Shown here: in pieces, positions 1 through 55,367 of the stretch
How the letters are laid out: each line of letters opens with the position of its first letter
Numbering within the stretch: the first letter of the stretch is position 1
NCBI GenBank assembly: GCA_016182085.1
Contig: JACOYB010000006.1
Coordinates: 2,015 to 66,014, forward strand
Length of the DNA stretch: 64,000 nt
Origin: Candidatus Magasanikiibacteriota bacterium
Lineage (GTDB): Bacteria > Patescibacteriota > Patescibacteriia > Magasanikbacterales > GWA2-37-8
Direction: 5' to 3'
Translations under genes and position numbers: made by a program
Notes under the pieces: model-generated
What the model was told of the DNA's origin: nothing
Seen by the model: the letters and a program-made list of their open reading frames with translations, nothing else
The model's database searches: none

Positions 1-1
1 T

Positions 2-103
2 GGTACGCAAACCATGATCTGGGCGGTGATTGGCGTGGCACTGGTCTTGGGAAGCTATATACTGCTGTCCACCTTCTTAAATTTTTTAACTAGGAATGGC
101 TAA
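2..103 (+). CDS. T4SS-pilin-like protein, C-terminal fragment (5' end lies outside window)
   Basis: Frame 2 reads ...GTQTMIWAVIGVALVLGSYILLSTFLNFLTRNG*, a hydrophobic C-terminal helix like those of the downstream paralogs. Confidence 0.4.
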   Translation, partial: GTQTMIWAVIGVALVLGSYILLSTFLNFLTRNG

Positions 104-177
104 AAAGGTATGGTATACTATTTTTATAAATTGTTACGATATATGACCATTCTTTCTTACGGAAAGGGGGTGAAAAT

Positions 178-561
178 ATGATGAAATTGAAACAAGTGTT
201 TGCCATGTTAGGTGTGTTTGCCATGTTGGCCCCGGCCGTAGTAATGGCTCAGACTCCGGATGTAACCCCAAATGATTTGGGAATTCAATACGGAGAAGCC
301 ACAGGTTTGGGAAGCAAAGATATCCGCGTTACCGTAGCCAGTATTATTCGTACAGCTATGGGACTTCTCGGTATCGTAGCCGTGGTAATCATTCTTATCG
401 GTGGTTTTAAATGGATGACCGCTGGTGGAAATGACGAACAAACAGGTGAAGCCAAGCAATGGATATTTTCCGGTATTATCGGTTTGGCCATTATCTTGTC
501 TGCCTACGCTTTGGCAACGTACGTTGTCAGCAGTTTGGTGGCAGCTACTACAGGACCATAA
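178..561 (+). CDS. TrbC/VirB2-like type IV secretion pilin-family protein (CPR T4SS_pilin-like), paralog 1
   Basis: Strong SD (GGGGGTG) before the ATG. Signal peptide, long hydrophobic segment and KWMTAGGNDEQTGEAK motif shared by all paralogs, then a second TM helix. Confidence 0.7.
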   Translation: MMKLKQVFAMLGVFAMLAPAVVMAQTPDVTPNDLGIQYGEATGLGSKDIRVTVASIIRTAMGLLGIVAVVIILIGGFKWMTAGGNDEQTGEAKQWIFSGIIGLAIILSAYALATYVVSSLVAATTGP

Positions 562-649
562 TTATTATAATTATACAGAGAAAAAACGCGCTTGTTTTGT
601 TAATACTAACCAAGCAAGCGCGATTTCTCTGGGTTAAAGGCCGTTAATT

Positions 650-786
650 GTCATTCTGATCAGAGCGAAGAATCCCTCTTCACTGTCATTCCCGCCCGAG
701 AGCGGGAATCCAGTCGACAATTGTCTGGATTCCCAATCAAGTTGGGAATGACAGACAAAAATCCTTCGTTACACTGAGGATGACAA
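650..786. repeat. Palindromic repeat cluster, GTCATTCCC..GGGAATCCAG family (copy R1, intergenic)
   Basis: Units gtcattcccgcccgagagcgggaatccag and ctggattcccaatcaagttgggaatgacag plus flanking degenerate units. Same family at 30908, 32971, 35011, 50144, 53502. Confidence 0.8.
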
Positions 787-814
787 AATAAATTGTCTTA
801 AAAGCGGTATTGAT

Positions 815-1339
815 ATGTCACTGAAAAAAATATTTTTACTTGTAGCGGTAATCGGAGTAGTGTTGCCGGTTTTTGTGTTTGCCGATGAGTTTGGTTTGCA
901 GGATGCTGCGCCCCCTGGATTAATCGGTAGCGGCTCCAATGTAAATTCCAGTCAAGCGCTCCCTGAGCTTATTGGTACGATTGTTGGCACAGTGCTTTCA
1001 TTTGTTGGGGCCATATTTTTCCTCCTTATTTTATATGCCGGTCTTTTATGGATGATCGCTTTTGGCAACAGTGAACGAGTAGATAGAGCTAAAAGCATTG
1101 TGGAACATGCGGCCATAGGTCTTATTATTGTGCTTGCGGCTTACGCAATATCCAGGTTTGTCTTTGGTGCCTTAACAAGTACCGACAATAATGCCCCGGC
1201 ACCGACGGCGGCTACAGTAAATTGTCCGTTTATTACGGAGGCAGTTGAATGTAATAATCAATACGATAATGAAACCAGCGTTCCTTTATGTAGATGGGTA
1301 GGGACAGTACAAAATGGTAATTGTGAAAGGAATATTTAA
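815..1339 (+). CDS. T4SS pilin-like protein, paralog 2 (Cys-containing C-terminal tail)
   Basis: Signal peptide, LWMIAFGNSERVDRAKS motif, second TM helix, C-terminal tail with 4 Cys. Confidence 0.7.
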   Translation: MSLKKIFLLVAVIGVVLPVFVFADEFGLQDAAPPGLIGSGSNVNSSQALPELIGTIVGTVLSFVGAIFFLLILYAGLLWMIAFGNSERVDRAKSIVEHAAIGLIIVLAAYAISRFVFGALTSTDNNAPAPTAATVNCPFITEAVECNNQYDNETSVPLCRWVGTVQNGNCERNI

Positions 1340-1353
1340 ATTTAAAATAGCGT

Positions 1354-1884
1354 ATGAAAAAATTTATTTTAACAGCTGCTATAGCCTTAACCATGATGCT
1401 ACCCGTATTTGTCTCGGCCCAGGGGTTACAAGACGCCGGTAAAATTTTAGGCAATATCGGCGGTGAAAGCGGTGAACGACTTGGCGTTTCCGGAGATTTG
1501 GCCACCAGTATAGCCACCGTAATTAAAGCTGTGTTAGCGCTTGTAGGTACTATATTTCTGGTCCTGACCATTTACGCGGGTATAATGTGGATGACCGCTC
1601 AAGGGAACGAAGAAACGGTGACAAAAGCCATGGGAGTTTTAAAAGCTGCGGTAATAGGTTTGGTAATTGTGATGTCCGCATATGCTGTTACTGCTTTTGT
1701 TACCAGCAGGTTGGGAAACCTTTCCGGAAACAACTCCTCTTCATCTCAAACACAAATAACCTGCTCAAGTTTTACAGACCAATCCGGATGTTTGGCGCCG
1801 CGAGATGCCAGCGGCAATTTTGTATGTGCCTGGTCCGTAAGCGCGCAGACAGGACAGACAAGCTGTGAGACAAACACTCAATAA
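1354..1884 (+). CDS. T4SS pilin-like protein, paralog 3 (Cys-containing C-terminal tail)
   Basis: IMWMTAQGNEETVTKA motif. Tail ITCSSF..GCLAP..VCAW..SCETNTQ. Confidence 0.7.
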   Translation: MKKFILTAAIALTMMLPVFVSAQGLQDAGKILGNIGGESGERLGVSGDLATSIATVIKAVLALVGTIFLVLTIYAGIMWMTAQGNEETVTKAMGVLKAAVIGLVIVMSAYAVTAFVTSRLGNLSGNNSSSSQTQITCSSFTDQSGCLAPRDASGNFVCAWSVSAQTGQTSCETNTQ

Positions 1885-1885
1885 T

Positions 1886-2254
1886 ATGAAAAAATATTTA
1901 CTAGTTTCATTATTGGCCTTAAGCTTTCTTTTTGTACCGGCTACCTCTATTTTGGCTCAAACTGATCTTTCTCAAGATATCGCAAACAAAAGCGGTTATG
2001 GACAAGCGGGAGCCTCAACTCTTTCAGAAACTGCGGGTAAAATTATTAAAGCTGTGTTAGGAGTTTTAGGCGTACTATTTCTTGCCCTTACCGTGTACGC
2101 CGGATTTTTATGGATGACCGCGGCCGGCAATGATGAACAGATAACAAAAGCCATGGGGATTTTAAAAACTGCAATTATAGGTTTGGTTATTATTTTAGTT
2201 TCCTATAGTCTTACGTATTTTATTTTAGGCGAAGTATTTAAAGCTACGATGTAA
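1886..2254 (+). CDS. T4SS pilin-like protein, paralog 4
   Basis: Internal start MKKYLLVSLLALSF (signal peptide). The ORF-track start at 1865 overlaps the previous gene. FLWMTAAGNDEQITKA motif. Confidence 0.7.
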   Translation: MKKYLLVSLLALSFLFVPATSILAQTDLSQDIANKSGYGQAGASTLSETAGKIIKAVLGVLGVLFLALTVYAGFLWMTAAGNDEQITKAMGILKTAIIGLVIILVSYSLTYFILGEVFKATM

Positions 2255-2265
2255 ATAATCATAAT

Positions 2266-2748
2266 ATGAAAAAAATATTTACGCTGGCATTTTTTCTTAC
2301 CTCTATATTCTGTGTTCTATATTCTACACCGGTAGGCGCCCAATCTTCAGGCTCAAATCCTCGCCAAGATGCCTTTGATCAATTACGCGCTGCCGGCGGT
2401 TCAAGCGGGGCAGATTTTAATAATCCTAACAATCCTACCGATCCGCGTACACTGGCAGCTAGAATTATTAGTATAGTACTTGGAATAATTGGCACGATAT
2501 TTCTCGCGCTCATTGTCTATGCCGGATTTTTATGGATGACCGCGGCCGGCAATGATGAACAGATAAGCAAGGCCAAGGGTTTATTATATAATGGTGCGAT
2601 CGGCCTGGCAGTAATTTTAGCAGCCTATTCTATTACTTATTTTGTTACGGAAGCCCTTGTAACAGGTACAACCGGAGGAAATTATCAGGGCCAAAATTTT
2701 AATGATTATTGTGTGCAAAATCCATTAGACCCAAATTGCGCGCAATAG
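2266..2748 (+). CDS. T4SS pilin-like protein, paralog 5
   Basis: FLWMTAAGNDEQISKA motif. C-terminal DYCVQNPLDPNCAQ. Confidence 0.7.
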   Translation: MKKIFTLAFFLTSIFCVLYSTPVGAQSSGSNPRQDAFDQLRAAGGSSGADFNNPNNPTDPRTLAARIISIVLGIIGTIFLALIVYAGFLWMTAAGNDEQISKAKGLLYNGAIGLAVILAAYSITYFVTEALVTGTTGGNYQGQNFNDYCVQNPLDPNCAQ

Positions 2749-2757
2749 AAGTGCTGA

Positions 2758-3846
2758 TCAATTTTTAAAAACATGTTCCAAAATAATCTTACTCGGATCA
2801 GGGTAAGATTTTTTGTGTATCATATCGGGTTTAGAAAGTACGAGTTCTATCTTACTCGCCAAATCATCGCTTGAGTGTGCCTGCATGCCATACTGGTTTT
2901 TTTCCAAATATGCCGTATTATAATCTTCTTGTCCGGGAATCGGATTGATAATAATAATTGGCTTTTGCAAAAATAACGCTTCAGAAATGGTGAGTCCGCC
3001 GGCCTTGCTTATAATCACATCGGCAATTCTCATAAGTTCATCTATATTTTCAACATTTTTGAGTAGGATAAAGTTATGCCGCCCACTCGGCCTTAACTCG
3101 CTTAATTTATTAAATGTTTTTTCATTATTTTTTCCGGAAATCGCGATAATATTGAGAGGCCGGTTAAAATTATGGCTAAAAATATGTCGTACCGCCTGCT
3201 CCGGCTTTATATTTCCGCCAGAAACCGGCATTAGTAATATAATAGGCCAATTATTATGAATATTAAATTTGGTTCTTAACTCTTGAGTATTTTTTTCTTC
3301 AAAGAAGCTGGGGTGAATGGGAATGCCGCTAGCCACAGAGTTGATACCGATTTTTGCTAAATCATTTTTTACTTCTTCCGTGGGTACGAATAAGTTTTTA
3401 TTTTTTGGGGAGAGCCAAATTTTATGAGCATAGTAATCGGTTACTACCGCAGCAATAGGAGTGGTATTTTTTTTAGGCAAAATAAATTGAGGTAAGTAGT
3501 GAGTGGAAATTATAAGGTCTGCCTGGTAATCATGTATCTGTTTTATAAATTTTCTGCTTCCTATAGCTATAATTGGGGCCAGGATTTTGAATAGTTTTTG
3601 CACAAACCAATGATCCGTTACATGATAGACAATTTTATAAGATAAGGGGATCAATTTAGAAAAAAAACTATAAAAAGACACTACATATATGTAGGCGATG
3701 CTGTCCAAATGGTTGGCCATATCAAGATGGACTATTTGGGTATCCGGGTAAAGTTTTTCGCAGGTAAGCCGAAGCGCTTCAGCGGCCCGAAAATGCCCGG
3801 ATCCGGTGGAGCACGATACAATAAGTATCTTTTTACCTTCTGGCAT
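2758..3846 (-). CDS. GT28-family glycosyltransferase (MGDG synthase / UgtP-like diacylglycerol glycosyltransferase)
   Basis: N-terminal ILIVSCSTGSGHFRAAEAL and C-terminal GT28 Rossmann half (ISKAGGLTISEAL). Confidence 0.65.
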   Translation of the reverse strand: MPEGKKILIVSCSTGSGHFRAAEALRLTCEKLYPDTQIVHLDMANHLDSIAYIYVVSFYSFFSKLIPLSYKIVYHVTDHWFVQKLFKILAPIIAIGSRKFIKQIHDYQADLIISTHYLPQFILPKKNTTPIAAVVTDYYAHKIWLSPKNKNLFVPTEEVKNDLAKIGINSVASGIPIHPSFFEEKNTQELRTKFNIHNNWPIILLMPVSGGNIKPEQAVRHIFSHNFNRPLNIIAISGKNNEKTFNKLSELRPSGRHNFILLKNVENIDELMRIADVIISKAGGLTISEALFLQKPIIIINPIPGQEDYNTAYLEKNQYGMQAHSSDDLASKIELVLSKPDMIHKKSYPDPSKIILEHVFKN

Positions 3847-3862
3847 ACCTTAACTTTTAATT

Positions 3863-3938
3863 TGGGGTGGCCTACGGGAGTTGAACCCGTGTTGCGAGAT
3901 CCACAATCTCACGTAATAACCGTTATACCAAGGCCACC
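3863..3938 (-). tRNA. tRNA-His(GTG), CCA encoded, with G-1
   Basis: Manual cloverleaf: 8-bp acceptor G-1:C73, anticodon loop TTGTGGA, T-arm ACGGG/TTCAACT/CCCGT. Confidence 0.85.
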
Positions 3939-3953
3939 ATCTATTTCCCTTGT

Positions 3954-3989
3954 GTTCCCAGTAGGAATCGAACCTACACATCCAGCTTA
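3954..3989 (-). pseudogene. Displaced 3' half of a tRNA-Arg(TCT)-like gene (anticodon-stem 3' strand through acceptor, acceptor TGGGAAC)
   Basis: Identical to the intact tRNA-Arg 3' half from GCTGG onward except the acceptor. Pairs with the 5' fragment at 4103-4140 (GTTCCCA). Confidence 0.6.
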
Positions 3990-4102
3990 CCCGCCCGCCT
4001 GACTCGTCTAGTGACCCCAGTAGGAATCGAACCTACACATCCAGCTTAGAAGGCTAGTGTCCTATCCATTAAACGATGGAGTCAACAGGCGAGTCGGGCG
4101 GG
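3990..4102 (-). other. Inverted-repeat-bounded cassette carrying the intact tRNA-Arg(TCT), inserted in the anticodon loop of an older tRNA-Arg copy
   Basis: Minus-strand read: CCCGCCCGACTCGCCT ... tRNA ... AGACGAGTCAGGCGGGCGGG, imperfect 13-17 bp IRs. Confidence 0.55.
4012..4083 (-). tRNA. tRNA-Arg(TCT)
   Basis: Manual fold: acceptor GACTCCA/TGGGGTC, anticodon stem CTAGC/GCTGG, loop CTTCTAA, T-arm GTAGG/TTCGATT/CCTAC. No CCA encoded. Confidence 0.8.
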
Positions 4103-4140
4103 GAAGGCCCCTATTATATATTAGATTAAACGATGGGAAC
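4103..4140 (-). pseudogene. 5' fragment of interrupted tRNA-Arg(TCT)-like gene (copy B, degenerate D-arm)
   Basis: GTTCCCATCGTTTAAT...GGGGCCTTC ends at anticodon-loop position 35 where the cassette begins. Confidence 0.55.
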
Positions 4141-4204
4141 AGTTTAAATAGTATTAATTTATGTGCAGAGCTTATGCGCTCCAGACGCACCCGCCTTGGG
4201 CGGG

Positions 4205-4239
4205 GAAGGCTGGTGTTTTATCCACTGAACTATGAGGAC
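4205..4239 (-). pseudogene. 5' half of a third tRNA-Arg(TCT)-like gene (copy A), ending in the anticodon loop
   Basis: GTCCTCATAGTTCAGTGGATAAAACACCAGCCTTC then CCCGCCCAAGGCGGG hairpin. No matching 3' half nearby. Confidence 0.5.
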
Positions 4240-4311
4240 GAAAAAAGCAAAACTATTCTACCTTATTTTTACAGATAAATCAAGGTATGGTACAATTATC
4301 ACTATAATACA

Positions 4312-4671
4312 GTGATTATAGTTATGGTTAGAAAATTTTTTTTGGTTTTTATATTTTTCTTCGCGCTTTTTAGCATGGCAGCTCCGGTTGCGGCTCAATT
4401 TGGATTGCAAGCAACGGCGAACAAGGCCCAATACGGAGAAACTAATATTTATTCTGTAATCAGCACGGTAATTAGCATGGTACTCTCATTTACCGGTATA
4501 GTTTTTTTGGCCGTTATGTTTTATGCCGGACTCCGCTGGATGACTGCTCGTGGGAATGAAGAATTCGCTACTAAAGCCAAAGATGCCATGTTTGCCGCGG
4601 TTATCGGTTTTATCCTGGTAGTAGCTGCCTATGGAATTTCTACCTTTGTCTTTAACAATCTTCTAAAATAG
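4312..4671 (+). CDS. T4SS pilin-like protein, paralog 6
   Basis: LRWMTARGNEEFATKA motif, two hydrophobic segments. Start may be M5 at 4324. Confidence 0.7.
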   Translation: MIIVMVRKFFLVFIFFFALFSMAAPVAAQFGLQATANKAQYGETNIYSVISTVISMVLSFTGIVFLAVMFYAGLRWMTARGNEEFATKAKDAMFAAVIGFILVVAAYGISTFVFNNLLK

Positions 4672-4866
4672 ACGCTGTATAGCTTGGCTTCTGCGGGGTT
4701 GACCCCATTAAATGTCGCTCTGCGACACCGCCTTGGGCGGATTTAACAAGGGTTGACTTTTTTTGAGTTTTGGGATAAGCTTACAGGCGTATTTAATAAA
4801 CTCCATTTTTGGGGGCGGACTGCCAAGAAACATACTCCTGGCTAGCTCGTTAAGCAACATTTTTGT

Positions 4867-5229
4867 ATGCTAGATAAAAAGAAAAAACAACAGATAATCA
4901 AGAAGTTCCAGTTACACGAGGGTGACACCGGTTCCAACGAAGTTCAGATTGCCATTTTAGCAGCTGAAATTGAGGAACTTGCGGGTCATTTGAAAACCCA
5001 CGCCAAAGACCATTCTTCTCGCCGAGGTTTGCTTCGCAAGGTAAGCAGCCGCCGCAACTTGATGCGTTATTTGAAAAAAGAAAACCCAAAGAGTTACGAA
5101 GAATTGGTGAAAAAACTTAAAATCAAGCCGGCCAAAGTAATCTCCAAACCGGATGGTTCTACCGTGGAAGTTGAAGATGATTTGAGCGACGAAGATTTAA
5201 TGAAGCAAAACCATGAGTCAGGTAATTAA
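4867..5229 (+). CDS. rpsO: 30S ribosomal protein S15 (with C-terminal acidic extension)
   Basis: [53 protein letters not shown] is the S15 core. Precedes pnp. Confidence 0.9.
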
Positions 5230-5788
5230 TAAAAAAAGAAACACGCTTAAACACCCCGACCAGAGAGTAGGGGTGTTTATTGATGTGCAGAATATGTATT
5301 ACAGCGCCAAAAATTTATTTGGCGCCAAAGTTAATTTTGGCAATATCGTAAAAGAAGCCACCGCCGGCCGAAAACTTATCCGCGCGATTGCCTATGTGGT
5401 CAGCACCGAAAGCAAGGAAGAGCAGCCGTTTTTTGATGCCTTGTACAATTTAGGCATAGAAACCAAAGACAAACCACTGCAAATTTTCTTAGGCGGCGAA
5501 AAAAAAGCCGACTGGGATGTGGGGCTAGCTGTAGATGCCATTAGATTTTCTTCCAACTTAGACGCTATAGTTTTAGTAAGCGGTGATGGCGACTATGTGC
5601 CGCTCGTAGATTATTTAAGAGGCCAAGGCAAACAAGTGGAAGTAATGTCATTTGGCGGCACAGCTTCGGGAAAGCTTATAGAAGAAGCCGATGATTTTAT
5701 AGACTTGAGTCAGGACAAAGCAAAGTTTCTAATTGCGGACAAAAGATACGCCGCAAAGAAACCGATATATCCGCCTAAAAAAATTTAA
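5213..5788 (+). CDS. NYN-domain (LabA/DUF88-like) putative ribonuclease
   Basis: [12 protein letters not shown] ... [14 protein letters not shown] motifs of NYN/LabA domain. Confidence 0.7.
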
Positions 5789-5923
5789 TAATTTAATGAA
5801 GTTGGTTTGAGGACACATAGACCATATTTGGTCTGTAGCTCTCAAATCATCTTCCGCCCGCCTTTGCTTAAGCTTCGGCGCGGCAAGAAAGTCCCGGAGG
5901 TAAACCCTTTGGGGAAATATAAT

Positions 5924-8140
5924 ATGTCAGTAAAAAATTGGTCCATGGAATGGGGGGGAAGAACTCTCTCTGTGGAAACAGGTAAGTTGGCTTTACAGGC
6001 CAATGCTTCTTGTATGGTAAGTTATGGCGACACAGTCTTTTTGGCTACTGCCACCATGAGCAAAAACACTCGCGACGGTATAGATTTTCTTCCACTCATG
6101 GTGAACTTTGAAGAAAAGTTATATGCCGCCGGTAAAATCAAAGGCAGCCGCTTTATCAAGCGCGAAGGCCGACCAAGCGACGATGCTATTTTATCCGGCC
6201 GGCTAGTAGACAGAGCTATTCGTCCTCTTTTCAATGATAGTTTACGCAACGATATACAGGTAATTCTAACTGCTCTATCTTTTGACGGAGAAGTTGACTC
6301 GCAAATTCCGGCAATGGTAGCTGCGTCAATCGCGCTATCTATTTCTTCTATTCCTTGGAAAGGTCCTATCGGCGGCGTGCGCGTAGGATCTGTAGACGGA
6401 AAGTGGAAAATAAACCCAACCATTACCGAAAGACAAACTAGCAATGTAGATATTGTGGTAGCCGGCACTCCGGAAAAAGTAATTATGGTAGAAGCGGCTT
6501 GTAAAGAAACTCCGGAAAACGATGTAATAGAAGCGATGCAGTTTGGCGCCAAAGAGATGGCCCCGCTTTTGGATTTTATAAACAAAATTCAAGCCGAAGC
6601 AGGCCAGCCAAAAATGGCGGCTGCCGAAACCGAAAGCGAAGCAGAAATCGCTTTGCAAAAAGCGGAAAAAGAAGCCGACGAGTTGGTGGCTAGCCATGTG
6701 CAAGATTGGATTTTTGATTCAGCTAAGGTAGACAGAAAAGAACGAGTAGCGCTGATCAATAAATTTAGCGATGCCATAAAACAAATGCTGGTAGAAAAAG
6801 AAACCGACGAAACCGTCATGAAAATTGTTTTGGGCCGCGTAAAAATTTATGTAGAAAAATATATTACCGAACAAATCCTGAAAAATAACCAGCGTTTGGA
6901 TGGCCGCAGTATTACCGATGTGCGCGCGCTTAGCGCCGAAGTTGGGTTGCTTCCCCGCACTCACGGTACAGGTATGTTTATGCGCGGCGACACCCAAGTA
7001 TTATCTGTAGTTACTCTTGGCGCTCCCGGCGATGTACAAACTGTAGATACTATGGAAGAAGACGGCACCAAACGCTATATGCATCACTATAGCGACACCC
7101 CAGCCACCTATGGCGAAACCGGCCCACTTCGCGGACCAGGCAACCGAGCTATTGGTCATGGAGCGCTAGCCGAAAGAGCTTTGGAATCTATGCTTCCTGC
7201 CGAAACTGATTTCCCTTACGCAATGAGAGTAGTATCCGAAGTTCTTGGTTCAAACGGCTCTAGTTCCATGGCTTCTGTTTGCGGTTCTACCTTGGCTCTT
7301 ATGGATGCCGGCGTACCGATCAAGAAACCGGTAGCCGGTATTGCGATGGGTCTGGCTAGTGACAAAAGTGGTAACTGGAAAGTTATTACCGACCTACAAG
7401 ATGTAGAAGACGGTCCGGGCGGCATGGATTTCAAGATCGCCGGCACCGCCGATGGAGTAACTGCAATCCAGATGGATACCAAAACCGAAGGTTTAAATTG
7501 GGAAATTGTAAAACAAACATTCTCTCAATCCAAAGAAGCCAGGGTTAAAATTTTGGGCTTCATGAGCAATATTATTTCCGCGCCTCGCGCAGACTTATCC
7601 AAATACGCGCCTCGCATTGTAACAATAAATATCAATCCGGATAAAATCCGTGATGTGATCGGCCCGGGCGGTAAGATGATCAACAAAATCATCGCCGAAA
7701 CCGGCGTATCTATTGATATAGAAGATGACGGACGTGTGTTTGTTACTTCTTCCGATGCAGTTGGCATGGAAAAAGCCGTGCAATGGGTCAAAGAATTAAC
7801 CCATGAAGTAACTGCCGGAGAAATTTATGAAGGCACAGTCGTGCGCATAGAAGATTTTGGCGCGTTTGTACAGGTGCTCCCGGGTCAAGATGGACTCGTA
7901 CATGTTAGTGAAATAGCATGGACACGCACCAATAGTCCCGGAGATGTGTTGAATCTGGGTGATAAGGTAAAAGTGGTTGTAAAGGAAATAGACAGCATGG
8001 GCCGCATTAATTTAAGCATGAAGCAATTATCGCCAAAACCGGAAGGCTATGTAGATCAGCCAAGATTTGAAAGACCGCCGCGCAGTGGAGGTGGACATGG
8101 TGGAAGCAGAGGCGGACATGGCGGCGGCAGAGGAAGATAA
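5924..8140 (+). CDS. pnp: Polyribonucleotide nucleotidyltransferase (PNPase) with Gly/Arg-rich C-terminal tail
   Basis: Two RNase PH domains, KH and S1 domains by motif. Start set at MSVKNW (the ORF-track start at 5807 is an upstream extension). Confidence 0.9.
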   Translation: MSVKNWSMEWGGRTLSVETGKLALQANASCMVSYGDTVFLATATMSKNTRDGIDFLPLMVNFEEKLYAAGKIKGSRFIKREGRPSDDAILSGRLVDRAIRPLFNDSLRNDIQVILTALSFDGEVDSQIPAMVAASIALSISSIPWKGPIGGVRVGSVDGKWKINPTITERQTSNVDIVVAGTPEKVIMVEAACKETPENDVIEAMQFGAKEMAPLLDFINKIQAEAGQPKMAAAETESEAEIALQKAEKEADELVASHVQDWIFDSAKVDRKERVALINKFSDAIKQMLVEKETDETVMKIVLGRVKIYVEKYITEQILKNNQRLDGRSITDVRALSAEVGLLPRTHGTGMFMRGDTQVLSVVTLGAPGDVQTVDTMEEDGTKRYMHHYSDTPATYGETGPLRGPGNRAIGHGALAERALESMLPAETDFPYAMRVVSEVLGSNGSSSMASVCGSTLALMDAGVPIKKPVAGIAMGLASDKSGNWKVITDLQDVEDGPGGMDFKIAGTADGVTAIQMDTKTEGLNWEIVKQTFSQSKEARVKILGFMSNIISAPRADLSKYAPRIVTININPDKIRDVIGPGGKMINKIIAETGVSIDIEDDGRVFVTSSDAVGMEKAVQWVKELTHEVTAGEIYEGTVVRIEDFGAFVQVLPGQDGLVHVSEIAWTRTNSPGDVLNLGDKVKVVVKEIDSMGRINLSMKQLSPKPEGYVDQPRFERPPRSGGGHGGSRGGHGGGRGR

Positions 8141-37470: not shown

Positions 37471-38955
37471 CTAAATCGCATCTTCTCCCAGAATCACTAT
37501 AATATCTGGTTTTGATCTAGAAGTGGTTGTAGCCTCATTATATGTTAGCGCAAGCCATTCTGGCAAATCGGTACTGGAAGAAGCGTTTAGTTCTTTGGAA
37601 AGCGTACCCACCGTGGTATTTGGGACATTACTGTTTACTATATATATAGTAGTGATAGAAATTGGTCGTTTGGCGCTATTGCCAACGCTTGAAATAAAGA
37701 GGCCCTTTGTTTCCAGTTGTTGCTTTTTTAAAGCTGCCAGCCCGGCTTGCCAAGTGCCGTTTTGGATTTCAATACTGGCGTTAGGAATGGCCATGGAAGC
37801 AGGCGTTTGTTTTGGCTGGATTTGTCCGGTGGCAAGAGCAGACGCGGAAGCGGTTGTCGGGGTACTCGTTGCTTCAAAAATATTATTTATAGCATCCTTG
37901 ATTTCGGAAAAATTTCCGGTTTTAGGTATAAGCAGATACGCGCCGCCTTCGCCAGTTATGGGTTTTAAAAATCCCGTAGGCGCGTCGTTTAAAACCAATG
38001 TTTTTATTTCATCATTTTGTATTTCTTTTCCTAGACTGGCTAAAAACATTATCTGTCCGAAATCAATATTGGTTTCAACGTGTTTGGATAGGGAAGAGAT
38101 AACTCGTTGTAACGTCATGGGGTTTAAGAATGTTTCACTGGTAAGCAGTTTTTTCTTAAAGGCAGTAAGCATAAGTTGTTGGCGTTTGGCTCGGGCAAAA
38201 TCCGAACCCTCGCCGTTTGAACCATGGCGGGAGCGGGTAAAAATGAGCGCTTGTTCGCCGCTCATCTGCTGCAGTCCGGCTTGAAAAGATACGGTTCGGT
38301 ATGAATCATTTGGGCCAGGATAAGCAGTATCGGTAAATGATCGTTGTACATCTACTTCAATGCCGCCAATCGCATCTATGATTTCTTGGAAGGCGGCAAA
38401 GTCCACGCGCGCGTAATAGGGGATGCTGATGCTAAATGTTTCTTCAAAAATTTTACGTGCGTATTCTCCGCCACCGCCCGCAGCCTCGGCTTCACCAAAA
38501 GCATTAGCATTATTTATTTTTCTCACTCCGTGTCCGGGAATTTTTACGGCCAAGTCGCGGGGCACTGATACCATGGAAACTTCCTTAGTGCTTGGTTTGA
38601 TGCTTAAAATAATATTGGTGTCGCTTAAAAATGGGCCATCGTGTCCAAGGCCGCCAATACCAAGCAGTAGAATATTTATCCGATCCTCACTTTGGCCAAT
38701 CATTACGTTGTCGGATTTGAAAATAAAGTTTCTAACGGTTTGCAGGAAGCCAATTTTTTTCGGTTTAAGCGTAACCGGATCATAATCAGACGGGCTGCTT
38801 GGCCATGTGTTCATCATGTTGTAATTTCGCAGCAGTAGTAAACCCATAATAACCGCGCCCAAAATTAAAAACACCGCCCATTTTGCCTTGGTTTTTTGGG
38901 GAGGAGTGAGGGGGTAGCGTTGAGGTTGGAGTAAATTTATTTTCTGATCATCCAT
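37471..38955 (-). CDS. LytR-CpsA-Psr (LCP) family cell-envelope polymer transferase
   Basis: N-terminal TM helix. RINILLLGIGG...SDTNIILSI...MVSVPRDL LCP motifs. Confidence 0.8.
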   Translation of the reverse strand: MDDQKINLLQPQRYPLTPPQKTKAKWAVFLILGAVIMGLLLLRNYNMMNTWPSSPSDYDPVTLKPKKIGFLQTVRNFIFKSDNVMIGQSEDRINILLLGIGGLGHDGPFLSDTNIILSIKPSTKEVSMVSVPRDLAVKIPGHGVRKINNANAFGEAEAAGGGGEYARKIFEETFSISIPYYARVDFAAFQEIIDAIGGIEVDVQRSFTDTAYPGPNDSYRTVSFQAGLQQMSGEQALIFTRSRHGSNGEGSDFARAKRQQLMLTAFKKKLLTSETFLNPMTLQRVISSLSKHVETNIDFGQIMFLASLGKEIQNDEIKTLVLNDAPTGFLKPITGEGGAYLLIPKTGNFSEIKDAINNIFEATSTPTTASASALATGQIQPKQTPASMAIPNASIEIQNGTWQAGLAALKKQQLETKGLFISSVGNSAKRPISITTIYIVNSNVPNTTVGTLSKELNASSSTDLPEWLALTYNEATTTSRSKPDIIVILGEDAI

Positions 38956-48054: not shown

Positions 48055-50619
48055 TTAGTTGTCGTTTTTTTTCATGACCAAACTCCAGATTTTGTCGGAA
48101 CCAAGCTCTGTTAGTTTTATTGACATGCCATTAGCTGCAGCCGAAAGTCCGAGGCCGTCGTGCCAAATTGGCAGCCAGCCATCCGGGAAAATTACCTGGC
48201 TTTCAAAGTTGCTGTTAATGCCGGATTGTTTTTGCGCCACAAGTTGATAATTGGAAATTGGTTCCTGAGATTGAAAAATTTTTGCCCAATTATTTAAGTT
48301 TGAATCACCTTGTTTTTCCCAGGCTTTAAATGGTAATTTGTAGATAAATTGAACTTCTGTCGTTTGGCCTGGTTCGGTAATGATCCAGTTGCCAAAAGCT
48401 GTTTTGCCAAATTCTTTGGTAATGCGGGTACCTGATAAACTATCGGTTGATTCTTCTTTTTCCAGGGCAGCTAAGGTTTGGTCTTTTTCATACCAGCTTT
48501 CCGGAGCTCTAAATATTCTTTCTTCTGGCCAGGTAAAGCCGCTGGCGCGCACGAGCTCACTGCCTTCGGGTACATAGATTCGCAGGTAATCAATATTGGT
48601 TTGTCCATATAATTTTTCTTGACTGTTTCCGGTATGCTCTCGGGTTATAACGACGCTGTTTACAATCGTGCCGTCTGGCTGGATAACCGCCTGGTGGCTG
48701 ATGTTTTGTTTTATTTTTGCGTCACTTTTCTGTCCTTGAATATTGGTATTTACTACAAGCAGGTAATCTTGATTTGGATTTGTTTGTATGATTTCGCCGC
48801 TCCAGCCAAATTCGCGAATCGTTTTTTGAGTATTTTCATCGGTAAAGTATGTTTGAATTTCTTTTTGCTGCAAGCCTTCTTCCAAGTTGGTAAGCATTGG
48901 CAAAACTGCTTTTGGTGTTATGTTTTTGAAATTTTCAATAAAAACCGGCGCCAAATCCGATAGAATTTGTTTAGGTTTATTATCCTTTTTTTCTGGGCCA
49001 TACTCTACGATATCTTGAATGGTGGCGAGTGCATTTGTTTTGTCTAAAACCAGTCCGCGATTCTCGTCGGCTACCGGACCCATTATGGAAAGTAGGCGAT
49101 TCAAAACACTGGCATTTATAGCGATTACCCCGTCAGCCGTAACTCCGCGGCTATGGCGGTAGAACCAAAGTGCTTTTTCGGCACTGGCCGGAAAGTCAGG
49201 GAACCAGTTGGCATCCTGGAACTCCCAGCGTTTATTGGATAATAGTAGCGGCGTAGGCGGGACAATATACTCGGTAAGCTGTCCTTGCAGGTCATAGGAT
49301 CCGCCGGCGGGAATGTCTATATGTATTATTTCACCATCCTTAATGTCTAACATGGCAAAACTGCCCATAAAACCGCCGGTAGGACGGAGCTCAGCCGGAT
49401 TTTGGAAAATAAGCAAGTATCTTCGCAGACCCTTGCCGCCAAAAATTTCCTGTACGGCGTTATTTAACTGAGCGATGGTTTCCAGATCTTTGACGTAGAC
49501 ATTAAATAAAACACGGAATTCTTTAAATGTGTCTTGGTATTCAAACGGCAACACATCTGAATCAACGTTATTTAATTCACGCACGGCTGTTTGATAATGG
49601 GGCAGGGAAAATTTTAGATGATCTCCCACAAGCGCCAGATTTTTGGTGATGGTGGAGTTGGATTGTTGAATTTCAGACAAACCTTTGAGCAAGTAGGTGT
49701 TGCCTAAGGAAATTTCTTGTCCGGCGACGATAAGCCGCTGGCGGCTTTGGACCTCGTTGTTCACGATAGGTACGGCTGAAATGATTTTTTGTAAAAAGCT
49801 ATATTTACTGTCCAAGATATTTACAGCCTGTTCAAAATTTTGCAGCGCGTCAGTGAGTGATAGCTGGGCATCGGTTAGGTTGCCGCTCATAAGCGCGGAA
49901 GTAGAATCGTGCAGCGCGGTAAAACCGGCGGTGCTGCTATCCGCGATTTTGTTGGTTGTGGATTTGAGGTCAAAGTAATAGGTGCGCGCGCCAGACGGTA
50001 CGAATATTAAAAAGAGTATGGCGAGTGTCGCGCCTACAAAATGCTTGGGAGCGGCTGTAGCGCGAATTTTATGTATGGCAGATTTAGCTTTTTGCGCGTG
50101 TGAAAATTTTAGATCAGAAAGTTTTTGGGATAATTTTTTAATTGTCATCCCGAACTTGTTTCGGGATCTAGATGCTGAAACAAGTTCAGCATGACGCTGT
50201 GTATTTTTTTGTTGAGTTGGTTCTTTTTGGGCTTCCATTATTTTTGGCAAGAAAGACGGCGCTGCCACCGGCTTAGCAGCCGATTGCGCAGCGGTATGCC
50301 GCTCATGAAAAAAATAAAAATCATTATTTTCTTCCGGAGCCACGGCTTGGATATGTTCCAGTAATTTATTCTTTTCTTTTTTAAGATTTACCAGGTGCGG
50401 GGATTCATGATTTTGATATTGAACATGGTGTACAAAAAATTTGAGCGGCGCGCGTTCCGTTTGACCAGTGTTTGTTTGCGATACCATGTTTGGGCTCACT
50501 TGTTTGTCCAGGTTGAAACTTAAAGCATCTGGGCAAGTGGATTTGTTGTGCCCTACTTTTTGGCAGAAACCGCAATGTCGGAGCTGGAGTTTTTTAGCCG
50601 GTTTTAGTTTTTTGGCCAT
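48055..50619 (-). CDS. Hypothetical large membrane-anchored protein with N-terminal zinc-knuckle (palindromic repeat inserted in-frame)
   Basis: CGFCQKVGHNKSTC, one TM helix, ~650-aa extracytoplasmic domain. Repeat R5 encodes HAELVSASRSRNKFGMT. Confidence 0.5.
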   Translation of the reverse strand: MAKKLKPAKKLQLRHCGFCQKVGHNKSTCPDALSFNLDKQVSPNMVSQTNTGQTERAPLKFFVHHVQYQNHESPHLVNLKKEKNKLLEHIQAVAPEENNDFYFFHERHTAAQSAAKPVAAPSFLPKIMEAQKEPTQQKNTQRHAELVSASRSRNKFGMTIKKLSQKLSDLKFSHAQKAKSAIHKIRATAAPKHFVGATLAILFLIFVPSGARTYYFDLKSTTNKIADSSTAGFTALHDSTSALMSGNLTDAQLSLTDALQNFEQAVNILDSKYSFLQKIISAVPIVNNEVQSRQRLIVAGQEISLGNTYLLKGLSEIQQSNSTITKNLALVGDHLKFSLPHYQTAVRELNNVDSDVLPFEYQDTFKEFRVLFNVYVKDLETIAQLNNAVQEIFGGKGLRRYLLIFQNPAELRPTGGFMGSFAMLDIKDGEIIHIDIPAGGSYDLQGQLTEYIVPPTPLLLSNKRWEFQDANWFPDFPASAEKALWFYRHSRGVTADGVIAINASVLNRLLSIMGPVADENRGLVLDKTNALATIQDIVEYGPEKKDNKPKQILSDLAPVFIENFKNITPKAVLPMLTNLEEGLQQKEIQTYFTDENTQKTIREFGWSGEIIQTNPNQDYLLVVNTNIQGQKSDAKIKQNISHQAVIQPDGTIVNSVVITREHTGNSQEKLYGQTNIDYLRIYVPEGSELVRASGFTWPEERIFRAPESWYEKDQTLAALEKEESTDSLSGTRITKEFGKTAFGNWIITEPGQTTEVQFIYKLPFKAWEKQGDSNLNNWAKIFQSQEPISNYQLVAQKQSGINSNFESQVIFPDGWLPIWHDGLGLSAAANGMSIKLTELGSDKIWSLVMKKNDN
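50144..50197. repeat. Palindromic repeat R5 (two hairpin units, 54 nt = 18 codons) inside CDS 48055..50619
   Basis: gtcatcccgaacttgtttcgggatctag + atgctgaaacaagttcagcatgac. Confidence 0.7.
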
Positions 50620-50781
50620 TACAAAAAAATATGTGGAATTACTTCCATATTATACACTATTTTTGAGGTTTTGAGGACTGTGAATAAAGGTGTTTGATTT
50701 TGACAAAATGGAAGCTGTAAAGGTAGTATACTTTTAGTTGTTTGGCGTGCTCTTTGAACAAGAATCAACAGGGGGGAACCT

Positions 50782-51177
50782 ATGCTGTACGTCCTTTTGA
50801 CACTGGCAAGCGTCGGATACCTGAACGTTGGCCTTCACTTGACTAGCAAGAAAAAGGCCGCAGAGGCCTTGGCTTCTAAGGATAGAAATAAAAAAGAGTG
50901 GCATAAGTTCAATCGAGATTGGCTATTCTCTATGCTATGGCTGCCGCCTTGGCGTTTGGTTCAAGAGGTGGTTAAGGCTGGGATTTTCCCGGCGCTTCTT
51001 AGCCATAGGAAGCGTGTTAGGGAATTGGCGGCCAAATTCGCAAACGAGCCTGATGATCCGAAGCTTCTGGCCGAGGCCGAACGGGAAGCGGATCGGGCCG
51101 CGCGGGGGGTTGCTGAACCCGAACCAGACAATGCCTTGAATCAGGTGTTGAACCCACAAGACCTGCCAGACGAATGA
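50782..51177 (+). CDS. Hypothetical protein (GC-rich patch)
   Basis: 131 aa with N-terminal hydrophobic segment. Confidence 0.4.
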   Translation: MLYVLLTLASVGYLNVGLHLTSKKKAAEALASKDRNKKEWHKFNRDWLFSMLWLPPWRLVQEVVKAGIFPALLSHRKRVRELAAKFANEPDDPKLLAEAEREADRAARGVAEPEPDNALNQVLNPQDLPDE

Positions 51178-51208
51178 GGGTCTTTAGTTTGAAGGCACGG
51201 CCGTTTAA

Positions 51209-52303
51209 TCAAGGCAGATTAGCGGCTTTTTTCATTTCTGCTATAAAAGTTTTTTCAGTAAATTTTTGAGCAGTTTTTTGGCAAAATTCTTCCATTTGCA
51301 CGGCTTTTTCCAAAGTCATATTTTTTACGGCTTCGCGCAAATTATTTGTGTTAAAATTAGGCGGCAGTAAAATGCCATTTTTTCCGTCTTCAATTATTTC
51401 TAAGAGTCCTCCCTCGGCCACGCCGATGACCGGTTTGCCGGCTTGCATGGATTCTACGGCGCTCATGCCAAAATCTTCACGGATGGGTATGTATATGGTG
51501 GCTAAACATTTTCCCAAATATTCCAAAAGCTGCTCATCGCTCACCCAGCCGAGAATAGTGATATTATTATGGCCCTTGGCCAGATTTTTAATTTTTTCCA
51601 GTTCGGGCCCGCCCGAAGCCACCACTAATTTTTTATCCGGCATGCCCACGAAAGCTTCTACGATTTTGTCTACTCGTTTTACATCATAAAGACGAGCCCA
51701 AGAGAAAAAGTACTCACCGTAGCCCAGATTTTTAAATGGTAGGGTATCGCAAGGGGGGTAGACCACGACAGACTCCAGTCCTAAATATTTTTTAATTCGC
51801 TCTTGAGTATTTTTGGAGTTGGTAATAATCAGGTCCAAACGTCGGGAGAGAGTTTCAAATCGCCAGCGATTAAGCCGGACAAAAGGAATGAAGATGATTT
51901 TTTTCCAAAGCGGGTATTGTGTTAAACGATTTTGGTAAGTGTCGTATAGATGTCTGGGAGGAGTGTGCATGTAGGCAATGTTTCGTTTGCTGCGTAGCCG
52001 CGTAAGCGCGATAAGACAATCACCGCTGTAGATTATAATGTCGTATTTTTTGGCAAAACCAGTTTTGAACAAAAAGGAAAATTGTACTTGCAGATAACGA
52101 AATCCCGGCAGGTTTGACCAAGCTTTTTCTTTATATAATTCTATAGTATGTATGCCTTCCGCACGCGGATCAAAAGCATCTTTGCCAATAAAAGCTGTGG
52201 CTATATCGGCATGCAGGTTTTTGGCCAGGCTGATGACAAGTCGTTCGCCGCCGCCTTTGTACAAAAAGTAATCGTGCAGGATAAGAATTTTAGGATTGGC
52301 CAT
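51209..52303 (-). CDS. GT4-family glycosyltransferase
   Basis: N-terminal GGGERLV and C-terminal EDFGMSAVESMQAGKPVIG (E-X7-E). Confidence 0.8.
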   Translation of the reverse strand: MANPKILILHDYFLYKGGGERLVISLAKNLHADIATAFIGKDAFDPRAEGIHTIELYKEKAWSNLPGFRYLQVQFSFLFKTGFAKKYDIIIYSGDCLIALTRLRSKRNIAYMHTPPRHLYDTYQNRLTQYPLWKKIIFIPFVRLNRWRFETLSRRLDLIITNSKNTQERIKKYLGLESVVVYPPCDTLPFKNLGYGEYFFSWARLYDVKRVDKIVEAFVGMPDKKLVVASGGPELEKIKNLAKGHNNITILGWVSDEQLLEYLGKCLATIYIPIREDFGMSAVESMQAGKPVIGVAEGGLLEIIEDGKNGILLPPNFNTNNLREAVKNMTLEKAVQMEEFCQKTAQKFTEKTFIAEMKKAANLP

Positions 52304-52455
52304 AAATGAATAGGGTGCGACTTCAGCCTGTATATTGGCATTGGCTAAAGATCGGGAATATGTTATGATTTCCCCAAGGAGAATAATAGGCTAATTGTAG
52401 CATATTATTTAATATTTACCAGGTATTTTTCTATAGGGGCTAAAGCCCATATATG

Positions 52456-52545
52456 CTCATTCGCTCGGAAATATCCAGTATAAATATTTTAGCTCGCAAG
52501 CGATCAAAAATATTTTCCTGTCTATTTCACTCACTCATTTCGTAT
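52456..52545 (+). promoter_or_regulatory. Bipartite conserved upstream motif (box A, box B) abutting the start of ORF 52546
   Basis: tatatgCTCATTCGCTCGGAAAT ... CACTCACTCATTTCGTAT-ATG. Confidence 0.6.
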
Positions 52546-52956
52546 ATGAAAGAATCATTTTTCAAACATATTCCAAAACCGGAATCAGGCGCTGAAGAAC
52601 CGCACAAACAACCCAAAGTTGTAGACATTCCAGCCGGCGGCAAAGAGAAAAAAATAGATGCAGACCCGATTGCCCGATACACTAAAACTTACCACAAAAT
52701 CATGCTTGATTTCGGTCATCAAATTATAAACTCAAAAGAGAAAAGCCTGGCTATACCAAATAGTTTAGAACTCATGATAAAAAATTGCGACACCGATCAG
52801 CTGGTTGGTGAGATTGAGAATACAAAAAAGGAAGACTGGAAACGCAGGGAAGTGTTGTTTAAAGCAATTACCGATGAAATTTATCTGCGGTTATGGGAAG
52901 CAAGGAAAGGTTCAAAAAGAAAAACTAAATCCGCCGATATTATAAAAGTTCAATAA
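52546..52956 (+). CDS. Hypothetical protein
   Basis: Start set at MKESFF, where the conserved box B ends. The ORF-track start at 52453 would put the motif inside coding sequence. Confidence 0.45.
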   Translation: MKESFFKHIPKPESGAEEPHKQPKVVDIPAGGKEKKIDADPIARYTKTYHKIMLDFGHQIINSKEKSLAIPNSLELMIKNCDTDQLVGEIENTKKEDWKRREVLFKAITDEIYLRLWEARKGSKRKTKSADIIKVQ

Positions 52957-54235: not shown

Positions 54236-55346
54236 TCAAAGCCTGCTGATTAAAGCCGTTTTTAAAATCTTCGTATCTGTCTGTAACGTATTTTTTAATG
54301 TTATTTTTAAAGTTTATCGCATCAAATTTAGCAGCTTGTTCGCGGATTTTGCCGCTGTCCCAATTTTCATAATTAAAATGTAATAGTTTGTCTAAGAGCG
54401 ACTCCCATGTTTGAGCGTGAAAAAATACGCCGGTTTCATTAGAGATGACAGTTTCGGTGGCGCCGCCTTGGGAAAAGGCAATAACTGGCCGTCCGCAGGC
54501 CATAGCTTCTACGGCCGTAATGCCAAAGTCCTCTAGTTGCGGATGAATAAATGCGCGCGCGCCAGAGAGGATTTTGCCTTTTTCCTCGTCCGTAATCTGC
54601 CCTAAAAATTCTATATTATTTTTGGCTATTTTTCGCAGGCTATTTAATTCCGGCCCGTCGCCAAAAATTTTTAGTGGCCATTGTAAGCGGTTAAATGCCT
54701 TCACGATCAAGTCGAATCGTTTGTAGCCAACCAACCTTCCGCCAGCCGCGTAATAAGTGCTGGTTTTTTGCAGAGAACAAGACGAAAGCTCTACGGGCGG
54801 GTAAATAACCTCGCTTTCGCGGCGATAGTATTTATTAATCCTTTGTTGGACGGTGCGTGAGTTAGCGATAAAATTATCAACTCTATCTACGCTCATTTTA
54901 TCCCAAATGCGCAGACGATGAATAAAGTGAGGAAGTAGAAATTTTATAAAACGATTTTGTTTTAAATCCGAAATATAATTATAATTATCCGCCCACAAAA
55001 ATCGCGGCGGGGTGTGGCAATAGGAGATGTGTAGGGTGTTGGGGCTGGTGATCACGCCTTTGGCAAACATGCTGGAAGTGGAAATAACTACATCAAAACC
55101 TTTTAAATTATGCTGTTCGGTAGCCAGCGGCATCCAAGGCAGATACCATTGATACGATGAATTACGAAACGGCATTTTGGCCAGAAAAGACTCGCGAATA
55201 TTTTTGTTATTAAAGAATCTTATTTTTTCCTTGTCATGAAATAAAACAAATATCGGCGCGTCCGGCCAAATTTCGTGCAGAGATTTTAAGACCCGCTCCG
55301 CCCCTCCATCCTGAGCGAGATAATCGTGTACAAGGGCGATTTGCAT
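54228..55346 (-). CDS. GT4-family glycosyltransferase
   Basis: GGAERVL and EDFGITAVEAMACGRPVIA motifs. Confidence 0.8.
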   Translation of the reverse strand: MQIALVHDYLAQDGGAERVLKSLHEIWPDAPIFVLFHDKEKIRFFNNKNIRESFLAKMPFRNSSYQWYLPWMPLATEQHNLKGFDVVISTSSMFAKGVITSPNTLHISYCHTPPRFLWADNYNYISDLKQNRFIKFLLPHFIHRLRIWDKMSVDRVDNFIANSRTVQQRINKYYRRESEVIYPPVELSSCSLQKTSTYYAAGGRLVGYKRFDLIVKAFNRLQWPLKIFGDGPELNSLRKIAKNNIEFLGQITDEEKGKILSGARAFIHPQLEDFGITAVEAMACGRPVIAFSQGGATETVISNETGVFFHAQTWESLLDKLLHFNYENWDSGKIREQAAKFDAINFKNNIKKYVTDRYEDFKNGFNQQALIG

Positions 55347-55367
55347 ATACCAAGAGATTTTGGCGAT

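Follow-up and report, generated by a model that had tools for sequence, protein, structure and literature searches.

Arrays of VirB2-like pilin genes are already a known kind of locus in Patescibacteria (Wang 2023; Quinonero-Coronel 2025). VirB4 is widespread in this group and arrays of 2-11 pilins have been found near virB4 (PMC12102498), while in Southlakia the predicted pilin genes lie inside a type IV secretion system (T4SS) cluster and are essential (PMC10633639). Here we describe an array of this kind at the start of a 64,000-nt stretch of DNA from a Candidatus Magasanikbacteria (= Magasanikiibacteriota) genome (contig JACOYB010000006.1, positions 2,015 to 66,014), which we call the window and to which all coordinates refer. 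Together with overlapping and related contigs, window positions 1-4671 were found to be the downstream two-thirds of a nine-gene array of small pilin genes. Because both best match and architecture follow position in the array from locus to locus, the array is, on sequence comparison, an ordered set kept across Magasanikbacteria, and its paralogues are old and differentiated.

For comparison we used genes SEML1_0006-0019 of Southlakia epibionticum ML1, the 'Sec-secreted array' of Nanosynbacter lyticus TM7x and the 441 arrays of Quinonero-Coronel et al. (2025). The present locus is like these in carrying PF18895 genes as divergent tandem copies on one strand, with occasional non-pilin genes between them, and in belonging to a monoderm host of the candidate phyla radiation (CPR) without a relaxase-type conjugation context. 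It is also an array under the published definition, which is at least two PF18895/VirB2-like genes in tandem or one non-pilin gene apart. Protein identity among the nine paralogues averages 30% with a maximum of 49%, as opposed to 25% and 54% in the published arrays (PMC12102498). The differences are that the published arrays were scored 'near virB4' and this one is not near virB4, and that related Magasanikbacteria loci reach up to 15 copies rather than 2-11. The searchable literature on such arrays makes no mention of a fixed positional order across species, of Cys-rich end modules, of distance from virB4 or of galU and UgtP-like genes as flanking genes.

Composition of the array

The first-pass annotation of this stretch, made from the letters alone, had proposed seven TrbC/VirB2-like pilin copies and suggested a Pfam search with each. 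All six complete same-strand open reading frames (ORFs) in the ORF listing pass PF18895 (T4SS_pilin) at 32.8-42.1 bits, membership being a whole-protein score at or above the curated gathering score of 26.6 bits (Table 1; genes are named by their first nucleotide). A hidden Markov model (HMM) built from the six copies scores each of them at E 1e-42 to 1e-52 and found no further pilin copies in the other 59 kb of the window. The partial ORF at the window's edge encodes 33 residues of the second helix and matches this model only marginally (E 0.015). Its standing as a seventh copy was secured by Logan contig L001, which is 100% identical to window 1-730 and carries the full 176-aa PF18895 gene ending there. 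Seven is thus correct for the window, as six complete copies and one partial, and the array itself has nine. The close relative L002 (GCA_964619625.1; 85-93% DNA identity) carries nine pilin genes, three of which start upstream of the position equivalent to the window start, so the window holds six and a half of the nine. In L002 eight genes are contiguous and the ninth follows an opposite-strand glycosyltransferase and tRNA genes, after which come rpsO, an NYN-domain gene and pnp; the order in the window is exactly the same. Among the off-window genes, position 1 reaches 44.2 bits against PF18895, and position 2 falls just short of the cut-off (25.7 vs 26.6 bits).

Across genes 815 to 2748 the intergenic gaps are 14, 1 and 11 nt, and this operon-like spacing suggests that the four genes are probably co-transcribed. 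Within the array, only the last pilin gene has a good promoter-like site of its own. Gene 1886 begins 1 nt past the preceding stop, the first start in the ORF listing being GTG 1865. For the last gene, ATG 4324 (MVRKFF..., 115 aa) appears the likelier start over GTG 4312 because the L002 orthologue is 97% identical from that ATG.

Signal peptides were assigned by eye and are of the Sec type, basic then hydrophobic, ending in VMA, VFA, VSA, ILA, VGA or VAA, with Gln next in 5/6 window copies. The copies share two long hydrophobic helices and the loop motif WM[TI]AxGNxE; the first-pass annotation gave this motif correctly in its title as WMTAxGNxE, and its alternative form with 'A..GN' contains a superfluous dot. 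Across 56 aligned family members, G65, G76, W79, M80, A82, G84, G102 and Y110 are invariant. The shared signal peptide, helices and conserved core described earlier are therefore borne out by reading and alignment, and the similarity is not confined to low-complexity hydrophobic runs, an outcome that would have counted against a pilin family. An AlphaFold 2 model of the mature part of gene 178 is a two-helix hairpin (helices 22-57 and 62-101; predicted local distance difference test, pLDDT, ~90). In the model of gene 1354 the helices span 49-81 and 86-126, and the tail is a short helix plus a beta-hairpin, also at pLDDT ~90.

Positional order across Magasanikbacteria

The comparison set consisted of named homologues and 80 related loci from GTDB species representatives, mostly Candidatus Magasanikbacteria of GTDB class ABY1. 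Many of the representative metagenome-assembled genomes with the locus (L007-L012, L018, L021, L022 and others) are titled 'uncultured Gammaproteobacteria bacterium', apparently a systematic mislabel. Between 8 and 15 same-strand PF18895-like ORFs are present in 60/80 loci, counted with a custom HMM on raw ORFs, where an error of one is possible in any single count. Among the 21 loci that have nine genes exactly, the best match lies at the same ordinal position in 17-20 for positions 1-8 and in 13 for position 9. Orthologues of different species are 43-62% identical, compared with 30% among paralogues of one genome.

Architecture follows the same order. Variable parts are N-terminal at positions 1-3 and C-terminal at positions 5, 6 and 8. 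Position 4 (gene 178) is the best conserved of all against its positional orthologues, with a median tail of 7 aa, and is a candidate for the major subunit.

Cysteine-rich end modules

The C-terminal tails had been described as unrelated to one another. This does not hold for genes 815 and 1354, whose tails share the alignment pattern C-x(8)-C-x(n)-C-x-W-x(n)-C-E, with F and D/E at matching places as well, a pattern found again in ~20 orthologues of other genomes. On this alignment the two tails are homologous, both of them a PSI-like 4-Cys module. The three genes reported to have Cys-bearing tails (815, 1354 and 2266) are the right ones; the counts needed revision, the mature proteins having 4, 4 and 2 Cys and the third Cys of 2266 lying in its signal peptide. 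Upstream, the N-terminal parts of the genes at positions 1-3 have 2, 20 and 6 Cys, the last of these belonging to a full gene with the loop variant FQWLTSAGNAE.

The resemblance to the PSI repeat (PF01437) lies in the C-x6-8-C ... C-x-W ... C arrangement of the PSI N-terminal half. The tail of gene 1354 matches PF01437 below threshold (14.4 bits, E 0.049); in a Pfam scan of ten isolated end modules no family was above threshold, and this tail was the only one with a sub-threshold PSI match. Tandem repeats related to the window tails reach the PSI whole-protein score (P0127, 26.8 bits). The window tails differ from PSI in having four Cys rather than eight and in spanning only positions 1-30 of 52 in the PSI model. 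With a profile of the gene 1354 tail we found 87 proteins at E <= 1e-3 among 1.84 billion representative proteins. In most of these the unit is repeated in tandem (as many as 20 matched stretches), and large surface proteins with PKD or InlB B-repeat domains are among them.

Other tail types recur among the homologues. One is a 6-Cys type, GCCF...C...C..LW.AG.C..C, and another is C-C-C-C-CC. A 4-Cys type, GCC...C.GFQE.W.AG.C, is N-terminal in the position-3 gene and elsewhere C-terminal in one to three tandem copies. A 6-Cys end module with the spacing C-x5-C-x3-C-x12-C-x4-CC closes some off-window members (P0051, P0055, P0058, P0093, P0095, P0101, P0102, P0104 and P0116, at loci L014, L019, L022, L023, L029 and L030) and matches no Pfam family; we take its spacing to be like that of beta-defensins. 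This 6-Cys type, together with the tandem tail copies, could suggest that the hairpin is a carrier for Cys-rich effector peptides that are cleaved from it, or presented on it, as toxins or signals toward a host. We find this hardly credible, since the PSI-like module of the window tails is also a tandem structural repeat in large surface proteins, which indicates a structural or adhesive role instead of a toxic one. There is no evident processing site or protease gene, and no toxin family was matched in the Pfam scan of the ten end modules.

Cysteine is absent from the two-helix core in 119/119 homologues. Of 626 pilin ORFs, 245 have tails of at least 20 aa, and the number of Cys in these is even and non-zero in 174, odd in 6 and zero in 65; another 109 of the 626 have N-terminal Cys-rich extensions. 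The even counts, the strictly terminal location and the signal peptide fit a topology in which both termini would be outside and carry disulfide-bonded modules. From sequence features, export would be by the Sec route with cleavage after V/A-x-A, leaving Gln at the new N-terminus in 5/6 copies. The protein would then insert as a two-helix hairpin with its conserved WMTAxGNxE...K loop in the cytoplasm, a topology inferred from the signal peptide, the AlphaFold 2 hairpin and the confinement of Cys-rich modules to the termini.

Relation to VirB2 and to a type IV secretion system

The identification as a TrbC/VirB2-like pilin of CPR bacteria stands in so far as these are PF18895 proteins of Magasanikbacteria. 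The link to VirB2 itself is weak. PF04956 (TrbC/VirB2; gathering score 27.9 bits) matches 4/9 copies below threshold over the same two helices (18.2, 17.1, 15.5 and 14.3 bits; E 0.003-0.05), and none of the nine copies qualifies for that family. As a reference we took seven genuine VirB2/TrbC genes from plasmids, each adjoining virB1 and/or virB3. With hhalign, the 'G..WM' end of helix 1 and helix 2 were aligned over 35 columns (E 0.0012, probability 19.6%).

Compared with VirB2/TrbC proteins such as Agrobacterium VirB2 and RP4 TrbC, the present pilins are alike in their small size, in a long signal peptide cut at A-x-A before Q (also invariant in the VirB2 alignment) and in two hydrophobic helices with a short loop between them and 'WM' closing helix 1. 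They differ in a loop ~7 residues longer with a GNxE...K motif, in the large N- or C-terminal Cys-rich extensions of many members, in the monoderm host and in the lack of an adjoining virB1 or virB3. For pilins with large terminal extensions, head-to-tail cyclisation is ruled out. The best NCBIfam match of the window pilins is NF045849 (Mbov_0395 family pilin-like conjugal transfer protein), covering 67/80 model positions and scoring below its cut-off of 40 (31.7 bits for gene 178, 25.3 bits for gene 1354). This family, from a Mycoplasma integrative and conjugative element, is similar in being a small two-helix protein of a monoderm conjugation system of the MPF-FATA type; we know of no arrays or Cys-rich extensions in it.

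Taking these observations together, we favour, with a probability of about 0.6, a set of differentiated VirB2-like (PF18895) paralogues that would form a T4SS-polymerised shaft together with module-bearing subunits. As homology with the essential pilin set of Southlakia suggests, the subunits would be extracted and built into a surface filament or conduit by a T4SS of the VirB4 type with its genes in another part of the genome. Shaft subunits would be the bare, best-conserved proteins of positions 4, 7 and 9 (genes 178, 1886 and 4324). Disulfide modules would be displayed on the outside as adhesion or host-recognition elements, by positions 1-3 on their N-terminus and by positions 5, 6 and 8 (815, 1354 and 2266) on their C-terminus. 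The Magasanikbacteria genome GW2011_GWA2_37_8, source of array locus L028, is listed as VirB4-positive in the published Table S1.

Several points weigh against this explanation. Its weakest link is the T4SS, a connection that would rest on homology and published work. The first-pass annotation reported no VirB4, VirB6 or PilB gene nearby, and we agree: neither these nor other T4SS or type IV pilus machinery were found among ORFs of at least 150 aa in the 64-kb window. In the 80 loci, no VirB4-like ATPase was seen in the inspected recurrent neighbour clusters within 10 kb on either side (rarer neighbours were unscreened). The hhalign probability against genuine VirB2 is weak, as given above. 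A PDB sequence search with the family profile gave only spurious matches to 'Pizza' designed repeats, with no matching stretch. Foldseek searches of the PDB with the full 1354 model and the mature 178 model gave no match at E <= 0.001, only generic helical hairpins and no VirB2 or TraA; since two-helix hairpins carry little signal and score poorly, we treat this as uninformative rather than negative. No filament built of these proteins is reported in the literature on Patescibacteria, and a tightly packed pilus of the VirB2 type would hardly have room for extensions of up to ~200 aa on all of its subunits.

In another explanation the hairpin is a permanent membrane anchor, no polymer is formed and the disulfide modules act as adhesins or receptors independently of any T4SS. 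The array never adjoined T4SS genes in the 80 loci and its neighbourhood is cell-surface-like (minor-pilin-like genes, a giant PKD/LamG protein, galU and a solute-binding protein upstream). In fold searches the hairpin cannot be told from membrane hairpins of other kinds, ATP synthase subunit c for example, and the large N-terminal domains at positions 1-2 suit an anchor better than a packed pilus. We nonetheless regard a scaffold of this kind as rather unlikely: 3/9 copies are bare hairpins with nothing to display, and the best-conserved position 4 is among them, which fits a polymer subunit better than an empty anchor. Invariant loop and helix residues (G, W, M, A, G, G, Y) would be expected for subunit packing or recognition by a machine, and the family members of Southlakia are essential parts of a T4SS cluster.

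Module exchange between strains

Between the window and L002 the tail has been replaced at position 6. There, 116 of the first 121 residues of the L002 orthologue are identical to gene 1354 and an unrelated tail follows, 25 aa with a CVQNPLDPSC 2-Cys loop as opposed to the 55-aa 4-Cys module of the window. At the DNA level the break in the alignment runs precisely from the end of helix 2 (nt 1716) to the start codon that follows (nt 1886). Since the 4-Cys tail type is present at position 6 of L003, a syntenic relative that is more distant, the replacement took place on the L002 side. A fresh copy or conversion from within the array was considered as the source of the L002 tail and ruled out, the likeness to the neighbouring position-8 tail being ~87% over only 32 nt. 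Remaining orthologue pairs of the window and L002 are 84-97% identical over their full length, so that point mutation has not made the tails hypervariable. Close homologues of gene 1354 have at least five types of tail.

The first-pass annotation had suggested surface or antigenic variation, or a set of alternative pilus tips. In the former, only one copy or a few would be in use at any moment, and the surface would be altered by recombination between copies to evade hosts or phages. The virB2 clusters of Anaplasma, Ehrlichia and Bartonella offer an analogy, since they too comprise several divergent tandem copies per genome and have been proposed to vary an exposed surface (PMC12102498). They differ in belonging to diderm intracellular pathogens with canonical PF04956 VirB2, and the present copies are of ancient origin, keep their positions and are probably co-transcribed. 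In keeping with such variation are one clear replacement of a tail, between strains of about 90% DNA identity, and the multiple tail types on close orthologues at positions 5, 6 and 9. So is an exact 46-nt tract shared by genes 1886 and 2266 over the conserved loop (2102-2147 and 2524-2569; proteins 49% identical), which may be a small gene-conversion patch. This tract apart, exact DNA shared by copy pairs does not exceed 16 nt.

We nevertheless consider antigenic variation very unlikely. Positional orthology is strict among species that are 40-70% identical, and orthologues of different species are closer than paralogues of the same genome. Every copy is complete, with its own start codon and signal peptide, so that none is a silent cassette; four copies are spaced as in an operon, and the swapped L002 tail is no fresh copy of its neighbour. 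A Neisseria pilE/pilS-type layout, with one expression locus, promoterless truncated silent cassettes and long identical tracts, was not found. Diversification would instead proceed mainly by replacement of whole end modules, as opposed to the expression of silent cassettes one by one. It is plausible that the subunits form a specialised or alternative set, which comes near the alternative pilus tips suggested in the first-pass annotation.

Neighbourhood of the array

Features of the locus are collected in Table 1. As had been noticed at first reading, the array is interrupted by a cluster of palindromes, a GT28-type glycosyltransferase and tRNA genes, all of which were confirmed by Pfam, ARAGORN and repeat counts.

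Table 1. Array genes and other features of window positions 1-4671, with the architecture of each array position across related loci.
Feature	Coordinates	Strand	Evidence	Across related loci
Array positions 1-3	upstream of window (3 ends 2-103)			N-terminal Cys-rich extensions, median 8, 12, 2 Cys
Array position 3, 3' end (last 33 codons + stop)	2..103	+	full gene 176 aa on L001, PF18895 37.4 bits
Array position 4, bare 127-aa pilin, no Cys	178..561	+	PF18895 42.1 bits	bare, top conservation, median 62% identity
Long hairpin directly 3' of gene 178 stop	576..631	+	inverted repeat; region 562-814 folds with z = -8.8
Nested palindromic insert, two ATTCCC-N-GGGAAT units	649..786	.	repeat count
Array position 5, 174-aa pilin, C-terminal PSI-like 4-Cys module (nt 1214-1336)	815..1339	+	PF18895 32.8 bits, tail alignment	C-terminal Cys-rich tail
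Array position 6, 176-aa pilin, PSI-like 4-Cys tail cassette (nt 1717-1884)	1354..1884	+	PF18895 33.5 bits	C-terminal Cys-rich tail
Array position 7, bare 122-aa pilin	1886..2254	+	PF18895 40.6 bits	mostly bare
Array position 8, 160-aa pilin, short C-terminal 2-Cys loop CVQNPLDPNC	2266..2748	+	PF18895 38.6 bits	short tail
UgtP-like glycosyltransferase, MGDG_synth + GT28 C-terminal domains	2758..3846	-	Pfam
tRNA-His(GTG)	3863-3937	-	ARAGORN, Rfam
tRNA-Arg 3'-half copy, between tRNA-His and tRNA-Arg	3953-3989	-	direct repeat
tRNA-Arg(TCT), intact	4011-4083	-	ARAGORN, Rfam
Orphan 5' halves of tRNA-Arg(TCT)-like genes	4103-4140 (degenerate), 4205-4239	-	sequence reading
Promoter-like site TTTACA-17-TACAAT with TG, ahead of last pilin gene	4268..4296	+	10/12 matches; consensus match only
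Array position 9, bare pilin, 119 aa from GTG 4312	4312..4671	+	PF18895 34.2 bits

The glycosyltransferase has diglucosyl-diacylglycerol synthase as its best NCBIfam match, at 175.8 bits and so below the equivalog cut-off of 500. A UgtP-like gene is found inside or after the array in 46/80 related loci, inside it in 31. Upstream of the array in the same loci are galU (52), a solute-binding protein (57), a giant PKD/LamG protein (34) and proteins with a type IV prepilin-like N-terminus (24-25). In L002 this region (1-6893) holds a giant LamG/PKD protein, three weak minor-pilin-like genes (ComGE, GspI and PilV matches), galU (TIGR01099 equivalog) and the solute-binding protein. Two different 'pilin' systems thus stand side by side, in a gene order that recurs in 24-57 of the 80 loci.

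That galU, a gene for UDP-glucose synthesis, is paired with a UgtP-like gene suggests that glycolipid is made locally, and any tie of the pair to a pilus lipid is speculation. F and T pili have a 1:1 pilin-phospholipid make-up. One could picture a modular heteropolymeric filament in which a bare, conserved shaft is joined by eight position-fixed paralogues with interchangeable disulfide mini-domains on the outward-facing end, host recognition by an epibiotic CPR bacterium would be of a plug-in kind and, by analogy with these pili, the galU/UgtP-like glycolipid would be the lipid partner of the pilins. In this full form we hold the idea to be unlikely. The mini-domain types so far are the PSI-like 4-Cys, GCC...W..C and C-C-C-C-CC types.

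The hairpin behind gene 178 is a possible transcription stop, with no U-run behind it, and was not called by a simple terminator scan. Palindromes of the form ATTCCC-N(8-10)-GGGAAT occur 7 times in the window against 0.03 expected, the other sites being 30911, 32974, 35081, 53556 and 53596. Window 637-823 has no counterpart in the 90% identical L002, and because of this absence from a close relative the insert behaves like a small, mobile dispersed repeat of the repetitive extragenic palindrome (REP) or miniature inverted-repeat transposable element (MITE) kind.

The tRNA-Arg pieces all break at one point of the anticodon loop, CCTTC / TAAG, and the breaks are joined to CCCGCCC / GGGCGGG motifs. 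L002 has a single intact tRNA-Arg(TCT) bearing the acceptor arm of the 4205-4239 fragment. An intron-containing tRNA was considered and rejected; since ARAGORN with introns predicts none and one 5' half is degenerate, we read the pieces as remnants. The stretch at 3949-4239 looks like the scars of repeated insertion or excision at that tRNA.

Elsewhere in the window a 23S rRNA gene (9485-12690) with a group I intron (12119-12317) is followed by 5S rRNA (12754-12860), and Rfam found no 16S gene next to this 23S. The unlinked, intron-bearing arrangement fits what is typical of CPR genomes. A cell-envelope polysaccharide cluster lies at 48055-56789 (-), with a DUF4012 protein (854 aa), three GT4 glycosyltransferases and a Bac_transf priming transferase; a LytR_cpsA_psr protein stands apart from it (37471-38955).

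Implications

In Southlakia, a cultivated Patescibacterium, a T4SS with its pilin set is one of the few systems demonstrated to be indispensable to epibiotic life, and the locus described here, together with the 80 related loci, gives a testable structure to the question of what role multiple pilins play. The paralogues are not interchangeable copies, and form a lineage-wide ordered set in which variation appears to be concentrated in exchangeable disulfide-rich modules at the terminus predicted to face outward. Such an array can also sit far from the secretion machine, beside genes for glycolipid synthesis and type IV pilus minor pilins. Should host recognition indeed be the task of the modules, a comparison of modules between strains could serve to predict the host range of uncultivated CPR bacteria.

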